DNA of 63,592 nucleotides from Alphaproteobacteria bacterium (GCA_039808785.1 JBDHTT010000001.1:1-63592), one strand, 5' to 3'; numbered from the stretch's first letter, positions 8,376-48,699 are shown. Translations and numbers: made by a program. The notes: generated by a model from the letters alone, not told the origin.

Positions 8376-8413
8376 CCTAAAATCCTGTACCACGGCAAAA
8401 TCATGAACAAGTT
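8376..8413 (-). repeat. Solo terminal inverted repeat of the IS30-like/MITE family (terminus at 8413)
   Basis: CCTAAAATCCTGTACCACGGCAAAATCATGAACAAGTT matches 31452-31489 at 27 of 38 positions by hand alignment. ATCATGAACAAGTT matches the reverse complement of the MITE left end (ATCATGAACAGGTT) at 13/14. Confidence 0.6.
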
Positions 8414-8496
8414 CTAAGTCAAAGCCCGGTCTATACTAGACAAGCATCCTTCTTTTAGATAGTAGGAATGAGTAAACAACCTAGGCGGAAATTGGT

Positions 8497-24705: not shown

Positions 24706-24746
24706 TGAAACAAAACCAACGCCGCAGGTGAGATCACGAACAGGTT
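24706..24746 (-). repeat. Solo terminal inverted repeat of the IS30-like/MITE family (terminus at 24746)
   Basis: GTGAAACAAAACCAACGCCGCAGGTGAGATCACGAACAGGTT matches the MITE right arm (47270-47311) at 31 of 42 positions by hand alignment, and at 26 of the last 31. Confidence 0.6.
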
Positions 24747-25209
24747 CTAACACACGGGCATTATAAGGAGTATGGTCCATCTTCCGAAAAAGTCAAAAGC
24801 AAAAAACATATTTTTGACACCGCCAAGGGGGAACAGGTTTCACAGGAGCAAAAAAATCACGAGAGCCAGAATATTTTCAAAGTTATTGACTACGTGCAGG
24901 GCAATATAGTTATTATATTATGTAATAATATCGTTATATAATGCTCGATTTTTAAAATTCATAAATATCCATTTTCGAAACTATTTTGCAATTATTAAGT
25001 AATTGCAATTATTTCTTTTTAAAGTTTTACAATATTTGGCTATATTTACTAGTAAATATAAAATATTTACTTTGATATTGAATATATACTGAATATTTAT
25101 TTAAAAATATTACTAGTAAGTAATAGTTATTATTTTTAATAGTTTCGCTTTTGGAAAAAAATTTCATTTTTCTCTTGCATATAAAATTTACTTCGCGTAT
25201 AAATAACTT

Positions 25210-31271: not shown

Positions 31272-31489
31272 AATCAAAGGCCGCATTCGCGGCTGATTGT
31301 CGATGGGGATCTGCGGTAAAGCTCTATTCGCTCTGTAATGTTGAGCTAACCATATCTTTTCCTTTCCATTGCAACTCCTGTATAAGGTATTGCACTTGAT
31401 CCGTGAACTTATACCCTTAAAGTACGTTTCGGAACGGTTCTCGAAAAAGCCGCAAAAATCCTGTGCCGCAGCGAGATTCTGAATAGGTT
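31272..31489 (-). mobile_element. IS30-like element left-end relic (terminal repeat, 5' UTR and the first 7 transposase codons)
   Basis: 31284-31415 repeats 558-705 with a 13-nt deletion and a stop after MERKRYG. 31416-31489 continues to a terminus (..CTGAATAGGTT). This stretch is the best match to both arms of the MITE at 47170-47311. Confidence 0.65.
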
Positions 31490-31559
31490 GTATAACGTCA
31501 ATCTTGAAATTTTAATTTTTTCTGCTATACTGAATGATGTCGGATTTATCTGACTATGA

Positions 31560-31955
31560 TGCTAAACGCTTTGTGAAATAGGCGTCGTGGACCCGGGGGC
31601 AGTGCCCGGCGGCTCCACCATAAGCTGAGAGGTTATAGTGGGGAGGGCGAATCGCCCTTGGGTGGTTTAAACTCCCCACTCGCGCCTCTCATCTTACGAT
31701 GGGGCCGAAACAGGATCGACACGCGTAATAAAGATAGAGTCTGTATCCGTTTGAGGTACGGTCGTATCCGTCCAAATTTGATAAATGCAAATGATAATGC
31801 AAAAACCGTAGTTGCCGCCAATGACAACGTCTTCGTTGCCGCTGAGGAAAAAGCCGCTGCTTAATTGCACCGGTAAAACTACATAATCCCTCTTGCATCA
31901 GCGAGGGGTGGGGCGCGGGGCGGCCTAGCAACAGAACCGCCCCGATTTTATTTTA
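31560..31955 (+). ncRNA. ssrA: Two-piece (circularly permuted) tmRNA
   Basis: The acceptor piece ends CCGGG-GGCAGTG-CCCGG-CGGCTCCACCA at 31620. The coding piece starts GGGGCCGAAACAGGATCGAC at 31701. GGGGCCG pairs with CGGCTCC, including a G3:U wobble (Ala identity). The tag reading frame 31817-31864 encodes ANDNVFVAAEEKAAA plus stop. The terminator hairpin is GGGGCGG/CCGCCCC (31917-31943) followed by GATTTTATTTT. The 5' boundary of the acceptor piece is approximate. Confidence 0.8.
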
Positions 31956-46352: not shown

Positions 46353-46565
46353 ATCGCGTCCCTTAATTCCATCTTCGGAAGCTTGCTCACCTGTTGCATT
46401 ATGATATGATGAGCATAATTTATAAATTTGAGTGCCCGTGCATTGGCATAAAAAAACCACGAACTTAGGCACGTCAATTTTGACTCGAAATTTTCAATTT
46501 GAAAAGAGGAGAATTGTAAGATTTTAACTTATCAACATGGAAAAATTTATTATGCCATTGGGCTA

Positions 46566-47873
46566 ATGTCGGGAACATCGTTGGACGGAGTTGATCTGGC
46601 CTATATTGCCACAGATGGCGCGGAATATGTCCAGCCATTGGCTTTTCGTACCTATGAATATGATGATGGATTACGTGCTCGGCTGCGCTTCTGTTTCGGC
46701 GCGCGGGAGACAACGGCGGAAATATCCGAAATTGAAGCCGAACTAACACACTTTCATGCCGATATCGTCAATGGTTTTATGGATGATTTGAAAACGCAAA
46801 CCCCAAACCCAGCACTTGATATTATTGGGTTCCATGGCCAAACTGTAATGCATGACCCAGCCCAGCAGTTTACCTGGCAATTGGGGGATGGCGAGTTGTT
46901 GCGCCGTCTTTGCCAGTGCGATGTTGTATATGATTTCAGGCAAGCGGATGTGGCTGCCGGTGGGCAGGGAGCCCCGCTCATTCCTATTTATCACGCAGCC
47001 CGCGTAGCATCGGCACGCCGCGTATGTTTGGAATCCGAGCAAACGCCAGACTCCCTCTCAGCCTCATGTCCTTTGTTGAACGATGCAGTAGCGATCGTGA
47101 ATATTGGCGGTGTTTCGAATATAACTTGGCTCGGAGCATCGGGCGCAAACATGGAGAATCTGACCTTAAAACCTGTTCATGATCTCGCTGCGGCACAAGG
47201 TTTTTGTGGTTTTCTGAGAACCGCACCGGAACGTACGTATAAGTACTTGAGGAGCGGAAGCACAGAAATGCCGCAAAAATCCAACGCCGCAGTAGAGAGC
47301 ATGAATAGGTTCTTATTAGCGTTTGATTGCGGGCCGGGCAATGCGTTGATGGATGATTATATGCTCACCCGTTTGGGCAAGAAATTCGATAAGGGTGGGA
47401 CCCTCGCCGCACGTGGATGTGTTGATGAAGAATTGGTAACAGGTTGGATGGACCATGAATTTTTTGCACTCACGCCACCGAAATCGCTTGACCGTAACGC
47501 ATGGAACTGCACCGACGTGGAGGAACTTTCTGCCGAAGATGCTCTAGCGACTCTCAATGAGTTTACGGCACGCAGCATCGCGCATGCGGCCAAATTTTTA
47601 CCTGTTCCTCCTCGAATATGGATGGTCACGGGCGGCGGGCGCCTTAATCATCATTTGATGGGAAGACTCTCCACTTTGCTTCACGTGCCGGTCAAATCTG
47701 TGGATGATCTGGGATGGAATGGCGATGCGCTGGAGGCCGAAGGGTTTGCCTATATGGCGGTGCGGCGGCTTTTAAACCTACCGATTTCTTTTCCTACAAC
47801 CACATCGGCCCCGCATCCCCTGTGTGGAGGAAAACTTGCTAAATCTCAATACTGGAGGAGCGATAGGCGTTAG
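46566..47873 (+). CDS. anmK: Anhydro-N-acetylmuramic acid kinase carrying an in-frame MITE insertion
   Basis: MSGTSLDGVDLAY, GFHGQTVMH, DFRQADVAAGGQGAPL, NIGGVSNIT and FDCGPGNALMD. About 60 aa lie between the NIGG and GPGN motifs where E. coli AnmK has about 8. Conserved residues continue upstream of the ATG (..KIYYAIGL-MSGTS), so the true start may be a non-ATG codon upstream. Confidence 0.85.
   Translation: MSGTSLDGVDLAYIATDGAEYVQPLAFRTYEYDDGLRARLRFCFGARETTAEISEIEAELTHFHADIVNGFMDDLKTQTPNPALDIIGFHGQTVMHDPAQQFTWQLGDGELLRRLCQCDVVYDFRQADVAAGGQGAPLIPIYHAARVASARRVCLESEQTPDSLSASCPLLNDAVAIVNIGGVSNITWLGASGANMENLTLKPVHDLAAAQGFCGFLRTAPERTYKYLRSGSTEMPQKSNAAVESMNRFLLAFDCGPGNALMDDYMLTRLGKKFDKGGTLAARGCVDEELVTGWMDHEFFALTPPKSLDRNAWNCTDVEELSAEDALATLNEFTARSIAHAAKFLPVPPRIWMVTGGGRLNHHLMGRLSTLLHVPVKSVDDLGWNGDALEAEGFAYMAVRRLLNLPISFPTTTSAPHPLCGGKLAKSQYWRSDRR
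47170..47311 (+). mobile_element. MITE derived from the IS30-like element, inserted in-frame in anmK
   Basis: The left arm AACCTGTTCATGATCTCGCTGCGGCACAAGGTTTTTGTGG and the reverse complement of the right arm AACCTATTCATGCTCTCTACTGCGGCGTTGGATTTTTGCG are terminal inverted repeats. The left 70 nt aligns with the reverse complement of 31420-31489 at roughly 85% identity by eye. Boundaries are uncertain by about 4 nt. Confidence 0.7.
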
Positions 47874-47888
47874 AATCATGAACAGGCT
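47850..47888 (-). repeat. Solo terminal inverted repeat of the IS30-like/MITE family, covering the anmK stop codon
   Basis: ATCATGAACAGGCT (47875-47888) matches the reverse complement of the MITE left end at 13/14. GTTAGAATCATGAACAGGCT matches the MITE right arm GTAGAGAGCATGAATAGGTT at about 15/19 with one gap. The TAG stop at 47871-47873 lies inside it. Confidence 0.5.
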
Positions 47889-48005
47889 CTGAGCAAAATT
47901 GTGTGGGCATGTCATTGGAAACGGCTGTTAAATCCCTTGAAACTTTCTATTTCCCACAGCATACTCCCGATCAAATGGAACCAAGTGAATGAAAGCCAGT
48001 GCGTT

Positions 48006-48647
48006 ATGATTGCTCCCGTTAAAAAAATTGTGCACGCCATGCTATTTATGTTCTGCCTGACATCATGTGTCGCAAACCCAAATAGCGACAGTCAACAGCA
48101 AGCCACATATGCTGCGCCGATTGAGCTGCCTCCCCAATCCGCATCACAGGGGGCGGCGTGGGCGATGTCTTCGCAACCATCGAGAGGTAACGAAAATGCT
48201 ACAGATAAAGCTCAATATTTTCAACAGGTTGATTATATCGTTATCCAAAAAAATATGCGACTTCTGACTTTGTGGAAGTCAGGACAGATTGTGAAGACCT
48301 ATCCCATTATGGCGATGGGGGCCAATCCTAAGGGGCATAAAATCTATGAAGGGGACGAACGTACGCCCGAAGGACTTTATAAAATCGAAGAAAAACATAT
48401 CAGCCAGAATTTTCAGAAATTTTTAGGAATTTCATACCCCAATAAGCATGATCAAGAATTTGCCGAAAAAATGGGCGTTTCTCCCGGTGGACATGTAGGA
48501 ATTCACGGGGATCGCGGTGGAATTTCGGGTTTTTTTCAACGGTTTGATAAAAATTGGACAAATGGATGCATCTCAATGCGCAATCACGACATTGAAGAAA
48601 TATATTCAATGGTGGATGCCGGAACGCCGATTATGATCATGCCGTAA
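48006..48647 (+). CDS. L,D-transpeptidase (YkuD domain) lipoprotein
   Basis: Lipobox-like MLFMFCLTSC. YkuD motifs LLTLWKSGQIVKTYPIMAMG...TPEGLY..., HVGIHGD and TNGCISMRN (catalytic Cys). I prefer the ATG at 48006. Confidence 0.8.
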   Translation: MIAPVKKIVHAMLFMFCLTSCVANPNSDSQQQATYAAPIELPPQSASQGAAWAMSSQPSRGNENATDKAQYFQQVDYIVIQKNMRLLTLWKSGQIVKTYPIMAMGANPKGHKIYEGDERTPEGLYKIEEKHISQNFQKFLGISYPNKHDQEFAEKMGVSPGGHVGIHGDRGGISGFFQRFDKNWTNGCISMRNHDIEEIYSMVDAGTPIMIMP

Positions 48648-48699
48648 GAACCTGTTTACAATCTCACCTCCGGTATTGGCTTTTTGTTATGAATATTCT

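Follow-up and report, generated by a model that had tools for sequence, protein, structure and literature searches.

Small palindromic mobile elements that reside in frame within bacterial genes are well established and include the Rickettsia palindromic elements (RPEs), intragenic ERIC sequences, QMITE1 and the MITEs of Anabaena (PMC10969869). Nearly half of the 44 RPE copies in R. conorii lie inside ORFs, according to the account of Ogata et al. 2000 that is given in PMC10969869. A second system is the IS1031 subgroup of the IS5 family, represented by ISLrh, which possesses 17-bp terminal repeats, GAACCTGTCTAGTATCT; the subgroup exhibits a preference for TNA targets and an exclusive 3-bp direct repeat (PMC12016507). 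The window analysed here, a 63,592-nt stretch of DNA from an Alphaproteobacteria bacterium (GCA_039808785.1, JBDHTT010000001.1:1-63592), contains a 144-bp MITE inserted in anmK, and the gene is probably still selected, with the extra loop a tolerated and dispensable passenger. As far as RPEs are described in the account cited above, the anmK element shares with them a palindromic repeat of about 150 bp, an alphaproteobacterial host, and a position in frame in a housekeeping enzyme gene, where an extra peptide is added at a site compatible with the fold. Unlike the RPEs of that account, its family is overwhelmingly intergenic, with about one in 28 full-length copies in a gene, and its clear terminal repeats and TNA duplication link it to transposition of the IS1031 type. 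The anmK case works like an RPE in its mode of residence, but need not be one. ERIC, QMITE1 of Coxiella and the Anabaena MITEs are likewise short, non-autonomous elements found as in-frame fusions or insertions in ORFs (PMC10969869, PMC5896051), but the anmK element belongs to a different sequence family and a different host clade, and differs further in that one locus documents the empty site, the complete insertion and an intermediate of decay.

An ORF of 435 aa is present at 46566..47873 on the plus strand, as originally predicted, and encodes AnmK, the anhydro-N-acetylmuramic acid kinase (Pfam PF03702, E 6e-73), with a match to P. aeruginosa AnmK in the PDB (phmmer, E 1e-47; aligned to 8BRE/3QBW). 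Besides the PF03702 profile, the ORF possesses the ATP-binding MSGTSLDG loop and the Asp in FDxGPGN, and the window protein keeps each of the 75 columns found to be invariant in 70 AnmK sequences. The annotated start is ATG 46566, but anmK likely starts at ATT 46521, because a conserved N-terminal strand, KIYYAIGL, is encoded in frame upstream of that ATG. The resulting coding region, 46521..47873 (+), draws on the ORF list, Pfam, PDB matches, the 3QBW fold and an N-terminal alignment. No ATG, GTG or TTG occurs at the conserved N-terminus in the ORF list or the upstream DNA, and the ATT start is common to three relatives, with a strong Shine-Dalgarno sequence. A conserved N-terminus that lacks a canonical start codon was counted against the tolerated-loop reading. 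A 9-codon coupled upstream ORF at 46537-46566, with a TAATG overlap, was dropped because it is not conserved in the relative L075.

The unusual feature of the protein is the spacing between two conserved motifs, N.GG..N and FD.G.GN, for which the original prediction had given about 60 residues. The count is 67 residues, or 65 from the longer NIGGVSNIT, whereas the spacing is 13 in 49 of 69 other AnmK proteins and reaches a maximum of 38 among them. Spacings of 17-38 in other AnmKs (38 in P0050 and 25 in P0059) represent independent expansions of the same hairpin, and because of these the hairpin tip before the catalytic Asp would appear to be a length-variable, permissive site in AnmK.

The DNA of the extra segment had been proposed to be a 142-bp MITE at 47170-47311, inserted in frame. 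The MITE, its insertion and the open frame all hold, but an alignment of 28 copies with their flanks moves the boundaries, the element being 144 bp in length at 47169-47312 (+), with ends AAACCTGTTCATGATCTC...GAGAGCATGAATAGGTTC, a profile match of E 2e-44, 70-90% identity to 27 copies, and a hairpin structure; its first base is a G in the family consensus. The element is flanked by a TTA duplication. The left copy, at 47166..47168 (+), is the original Leu codon of ..T-L-L-A-F-D, as placed by the flank alignment and by empty sites, and the right copy lies at 47313..47315 (+), as placed by the flank alignment and a triplet shuffle test. The left terminal inverted repeat (47169..47187, +) and the right one (47294..47312, +) pair with each other and follow the family consensus, and the right one is also kept in a deletion allele, L001. 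The inverted-repeat arms of the original prediction are borne out, with 88% complementary pairs between 47170-47186 and 47295-47311 and 73% between 47188-47209 and 47271-47292. As a single strand, segment 47170-47311 folds into one long hairpin with a dG of -72.9 kcal/mol, compared with -38.5 +/- 4.0 kcal/mol for its shuffles (z -8.6), none of 200 of which folds as well. A hairpin of about -73 kcal/mol in a coding region could hinder translation or attract RNases, and this was also counted against the tolerated-loop reading. The insertion comprises the element and one TTA, 144 + 3 = 147 nt or 49 codons, which resolves why a length of 142, not divisible by three, seemed to leave the frame intact, and which replaces the earlier figure of about 47 aa with 49 aa. 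The MITE proper translates to 48 residues, KPVHDLAAAQ...ESMNRF, and no stop occurs in the anmK frame through the 147-nt insertion, in agreement with the original reading.

Alignment with orthologues, which had been suggested as a check on whether the loop is absent from relatives, revealed an empty site in two of them. The sequence is CTA CCA TTA TTG GCA TTT GAT in L075 and ATA CCC TTA TTG GCG TTT GAT in L072; the empty-site AnmK orthologues, P0003 and P0004, are 66% and 64% identical to the window protein and belong to the nearest distinct species. Without 47169-47315, the window reads ..CTG ACC TTA TTA GCG TTT GAT.. and encodes GASGANMENLTLLAFDCG. The empty sites thus lie at the predicted point, indicating that the element entered the first Leu codon of L-L-A-F-D. 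No homologous, insert-sized loop was seen among the 69 AnmK proteins or, by match length, among the best 80 JGI metagenome relatives, which are 36-47% identical, the best being 47%. That the segment is not a mobile insertion at all, but an ancestral lineage-specific palindromic loop or an assembly chimera at a repeat, is scarcely credible. In its favour, the window was assembled as part of a MAG, and assemblers can be misled by repeats; however, such an origin is contradicted by the exact empty site in relatives and by the target duplication, 27 other copies are present at unrelated and mostly intergenic loci, both flanks are halves of one gene in frame, and the same right junction occurs on an independent contig from another sample.

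The element is one of a family of repeats. The arm pattern CCGCAGN{1,2}GAGANNNNGAAYAGGTT has 4 matches in the window, versus 0 expected, and matched 69 stretches in a species-representative genome collection, about 35 of them from one genome, 'Alphaproteobacteria bacterium new MAG-96' (JAEUKN01), and nearly all the rest being single matches in unrelated genomes, as by chance. MAG-96 is a relative and not the same species, because its orthologous genes are about 80% identical to those of the window in DNA. A copy search with the 142 nt had also been suggested, and BLAST against the 69 stretches returned 27 further full-length copies with 70-90% identity, among them copies in two other MAGs, L019 and L046. 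Of the 28 copies, 17 measure 144 bp and 27 fall within 142-145 bp, the one exception being a copy of 161 bp, and the consensus ends, GAACCTGTTCATGATCTC...GAGATCATGAACAGGTTC, are conserved in 27 copies. Identical triplets flank 22 of the 28 copies and covary between sides (TTA/TTA, TAA/TAA, TCA/TCA), whereas random re-pairing of left and right flanks yielded a mean of 9.2 identical pairs and a maximum of 18, with 0 of 10,000 trials reaching 22. On the left, the triplet is TTA in 13 copies, TAA in 9, TCA in 3 and TGA in 1. The triplets are direct and not inverted repeats, and they therefore represent a target-site duplication at TNA as opposed to part of the terminal repeat. Terminal inverted repeats, a target-site duplication, small size, the lack of a transposase and dispersed copies of constant length are the features of a MITE, and all are found in this family. 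The other copies are almost all intergenic and at unrelated loci, anmK accounting for the approximately one in 28 inside a gene. Two other copies were considered as candidates for residence in a gene and rejected: a long open frame runs through the L046 copy, but this frame is the stretch preceding a trpG/pabA-like gene that begins MLLLIDNYDSF, and there is no credible gene at the L047 copy.

The MITE ends, GAACCTGTTCATGATCT, are identical to those of ISLrh, GAACCTGTCTAGTATCT, at 13 of 17 positions including the first 8, in a comparison with this one published member. The anmK element shares with the IS1031 subgroup (ISLrh, PMC12016507) a terminal repeat starting GAACCTGT, a TNA target and a 3-bp direct repeat, but it is only 144 bp in length and lacks a transposase, making it a deletion derivative or mimic and not an IS. 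Because its ends and its TNA 3-bp duplication match those of the IS1031 subgroup, the element is best described as an IS1031-type MITE (IS5 family). The parent IS was not found beside solo ends of the family in L033, L050 and L031, where there is no transposase ORF and only ordinary genes are present. A related transposase presumably mobilised this 144-bp non-autonomous element in trans, and the element entered anmK at a Leu codon, TTA, which was duplicated in the process. Tourist-type MITEs of eukaryotes, which belong to the PIF/Harbinger superfamily, also produce a 3-bp TWA/TNA duplication and have a transposase lineage related to IS5; the resemblance is one of mechanism only, as Tourist elements are eukaryotic and unrelated in sequence.

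Further traces of the family are present in the window. A half copy at 31415..31490 on the minus strand, comprising the left half cut at the palindrome centre, is detected by the MITE profile (nhmmer E 5e-17, profile positions 4-78) and by blastn, in which 31422-31489 matches the anmK element in reverse complement with 82% identity over 68 nt (E 9e-14). It sits just upstream of a two-piece tmRNA gene (31500-31947), in the 240-bp spacer that separates this gene from a flagellar gene. The original prediction had noted the similarity of the anmK element to 31420-31489, which holds, but had ascribed the site to an IS30-like relic; IS30 was rejected at 31.4 kb, since there is no transposase remnant, the sequence matches the MITE profile, and the ends and TNA are of the IS1031/IS5 type, and no transposase-like ORF was found in the 240-bp spacer. 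Three solo ends are also present: a right end of about 38 nt at 24712..24749 (+; nhmmer E 6e-6, with an exact match to the arm pattern), an end at 48646..48686 (-; nhmmer E 3e-4) that abuts the TAA stop of the downstream L,D-transpeptidase (YkuD) gene, and a degenerate end at 8377..8416 (-; nhmmer E 1e-3). The candidate second trace after the anmK stop, ATCATGAACAGGCTCT at 47875-47891, was discarded as not significant (profile E 0.6-1.2). The solo ends are about 40 nt in length, the same extent as the remnant in the L001 allele, and on this match the usual fate of elements in this genome seems to be loss of most of the palindrome with one end left.

Every one of the six frames of the family consensus contains stops; those in the anmK frame are a TAG at codon 25 and a TGA at codon 37, where the window copy has TAT AAG and CAA, respectively. 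The closest relative copy, L059 from MAG-96, is 90% identical, lies in non-coding DNA, and possesses the same open codons as the window copy. Since L059 is already open at both stop positions, no repair after insertion need be assumed, and the copy that entered anmK therefore came from a sub-lineage in which this frame was already almost free of stops. The canonical element and its duplication total 147 nt, and so the downstream frame is kept by length alone; with no stop in the landing frame of this copy, the gene still encodes a full AnmK with 49 extra residues.

A structural model, likewise among the checks initially suggested, was obtained with AlphaFold2 from the 70-sequence alignment, using a 450-aa numbering from 46521 in which the insert is residues 217-265. 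The model has a mean pLDDT of 86.9 and a pTM of 0.86, exhibits the two-domain ASKHA fold, and matches PDB 3QBW_B in Foldseek with E 2e-32, a TM of 0.91 and an rmsd of 2.6 A; the AnmK core fold is therefore predicted to be intact despite the insert. A pLDDT below 50 is confined to residues 1-5 and 216-251, the latter constituting most of the insert, which is predicted to be disordered, and a short helix is predicted at 253-263, with normal strands on either side. The insert occupies a beta-hairpin tip, where the NIGGVSN strand turns into the LAFD strand carrying the catalytic Asp, in keeping with the surface loop originally proposed, though close in sequence to the active site. The Asp is the D of FDCGPGN, encoded by GAT at 47325..47327 (+), and its counterpart in the P. 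aeruginosa enzyme, by phmmer alignment (8BRE/3QBW), is Asp182, which acts as catalytic general base (PMC10570956). The last residue of the insert precedes this Asp by four, a proximity that was counted against the tolerated-loop reading.

The closest protein to the window AnmK is P0002, of 388 aa, from Logan contig L001 (run SRR25435875), the sister allele being represented by this one contig of 1.8 kb from a single run. The DNA of L001 matches that of the window at 99.3% and 98.5% identity on the two sides of the element, and L001 retains only the right 33 nt of the MITE with the TTA, 111 of the 144 nt of the MITE having been lost. The loss is a 135-nt deletion, in frame, between the native GCAAAC and the GCCAAC of the MITE. 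In the window, the left microhomology is GCAAAC at 47145..47150 (+) and the right one is TCCAAC at 47280..47285 (+), for which the consensus is GCCAAC; the two lie exactly 135 nt apart, and both were located from the window and L001 codons. The window allele in turn lacks 12 nt that are present in L001, GAC CTT ACG GAA (DLTE), also in frame, and the outgroup counterparts of DLTE are ELAE and DLEE. Both alleles can be derived from an ancestor with the sequence ..TCG KGC GAC CTT ACG GAA GCA AAC ATG GAG AAT CTG ACC TTA [MITE] TTA... A model in which L001 arose by three separate deletions was replaced by one of a single 135-nt deletion together with a 12-nt deletion in the window lineage, on alignment of the outgroup codons. 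The length of each of the three independent indels at this site across the two alleles (147, 12 and 135 nt) is divisible by three. Outside the indels, the window and L001 are separated by 6 synonymous differences and 4 non-synonymous ones, which are too few for a firm dN/dS, and a Trp/stop difference shifts the C-terminus by six residues. Neither allele possesses any other stop or frameshift in 1.35 kb of anmK.

The original prediction left two outcomes side by side, a tolerated loop and a cryptic pseudogene. The in-frame indels, the intact invariant columns, the predicted intact core fold and the substitution pattern together favour the first, in which anmK would still be under selection and the insert would be tolerated but dispensable. 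In the predicted structure, the bulk of the added residues forms a floppy surface loop while the kinase core folds normally, and the sister strain has lost most of this passenger through an in-frame, microhomology-mediated deletion. From these features we infer that the AnmK protein with the insert is made and active. In the alternative, anmK would be crippled or a young pseudogene, open only by the length multiple and a lucky stop-free copy, with its protein absent or inactive. This is unlikely, though it merits consideration, given that the insert lies only four residues away from the catalytic Asp, that the mRNA hairpin in the coding region is very stable, that ATG, GTG and TTG are absent at the conserved N-terminus, that the length of a canonical insertion by itself suffices to keep the frame, and that other bacteria can do without AnmK in culture, a viable anmK mutant of P. 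aeruginosa being an example (PMC10570956). However, the further 12-nt and 135-nt indels at the same spot are both in frame, all invariant family residues are kept, both alleles extend over 1.35 kb without other stops or frameshifts, non-synonymous changes do not outnumber synonymous ones, the ATT start with its strong Shine-Dalgarno sequence is conserved in three relatives, and the core is predicted to be folded.

A different departure from the tolerated passenger is that the insert has been recruited, either as a protein loop for gating, dimerisation or partner binding or as an RNA hairpin that regulates anmK. The window copy is free of stops, in contrast to the consensus with its stops in every one of the six frames, and the right-arm peptide ..ESMNRFL is predicted to be helical and is retained in both alleles. 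Recruitment is nonetheless exceedingly improbable: the sister strain deleted 111 of the 144 nt and kept its ORF, residues 216-251 are predicted to be disordered, and the closest copy, L059, was already open at both stop positions. At the RNA level, no Rfam family matched the element even at E 10, and no promoter-like or terminator-like site was found within it. The terminal stem persists in a consensus fold of the 27 copies, yet covariation contributes next to nothing (-0.18 kcal/mol), as expected for young transposon copies, and hence provides no evidence for a selected RNA. A bolder proposal is that the IS1031-type MITE family is a source of new protein segments in a little-studied lineage of alphaproteobacteria and that the right-arm ..ESMNRFL is now a working part of AnmK. 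This is very improbable, and it draws on the L001 allele, in which ..ESMNRFL replaces the native strand that leads in to the catalytic Asp. If true, a transposon-derived sequence would have been caught in the process of being domesticated into an enzyme.

With the insert read as a tolerated passenger, the value of the locus is that of a clean, fully documented example and not of a new principle, in-frame MITEs being already known from RPEs, ERIC and QMITE1. For annotation, it serves as a warning that a long, odd loop in a 435-aa AnmK does not signal a misassembly, nor does it necessarily mean a pseudogene. The AnmK hairpin before the catalytic Asp appears to tolerate large insertions, which would be useful for protein engineering as well as for annotation. 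At this one locus, the whole life of the element can be followed, from the empty target in relatives, through the intact in-frame insertion in the window, to microhomology-mediated in-frame decay in the sister allele.

The conserved N-terminus of anmK, within positions 46500-46570 of the window, is encoded without an ATG, GTG or TTG, and the residues KIYYAIGL are encoded in frame 5' of the first ATG of the gene (46566). A candidate start codon is the ATT at 46521, which lies 9 nt 3' of a GAGGAG Shine-Dalgarno sequence (46506-46511) and falls, in the alignment, at the GTG that opens the orthologous gene at L072, a relative locus with an empty site. An ATT is also kept at this position in the sister-strain contig L001 and at L075, a second relative locus with an empty site. 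Sequence comparison points to initiation of anmK at a rare AUU as the likely arrangement, and the annotated AnmK (435 aa) is probably short by 15 residues. The anmK leader, of approximately 85 nt, is nearly identical between the window and L075, yet the proteins are just 66% identical. At the other end of the gene, the stop codon is a TAG at 47871 in the window, whereas L001 terminates at a TGA six codons earlier. The final codons and the bases past the stop (47853-47891, ..TACTGGAGGAGCGATAGGCGTTAGAATCATGAACAGGCTCTGA) are similar to the right end of the MITE, with a profile E-value of only 0.6-1.2. Two unrelated AnmK proteins, P0050 and P0059, carry their own expansions of 12-25 residues (e.g. 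..GPSSCHPHAGGDLGERGQEVPVSTGTADFSEILAFD) at the hairpin tip where the MITE sits in the window.

Partial copies of the MITE are present elsewhere in the window. A half element, broken at the centre of the palindrome (31415-31490), lies approximately 10 nt upstream of a two-piece alphaproteobacterial tmRNA gene (31500-31947; Rfam RF01849, 197 bits), and a solo MITE end (48645-48686) abuts the TAA stop of a YkuD-type L,D-transpeptidase gene (..ATG CCG TAA GAACCTGTTTAC..). Two stop codons, TAA and TGA, fit the TNA target of the MITE, so the element may insert preferentially at the ends of genes.

In the related genome MAG-96, one copy (L035, 6175-6333) has been lengthened to 161 bp by an internal tandem duplication of 17 nt, in which ACCGCATCGGATCGTAC is repeated. 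Further afield, approximately 58 nt at the centre of the MITE consensus (TCGAGAACCG..CGTAC....GTACGTGAG..CGGAAGCGCAGAAAT) exhibit 79-88% identity to unannotated intergenic DNA of other alphaproteobacterial replicons, from Agrobacterium/Allorhizobium, Phyllobacterium, Bosea, and Sphingobium. The match on Agrobacterium vitis pRvVAR031a (L076, 1458-1600) has a similar palindrome to that of the MITE family but different ends (GACAGTCTGTTCAAGA..). The MITE seems to share its core with a broader alphaproteobacterial superfamily, whose members differ more at their ends than in this conserved centre.
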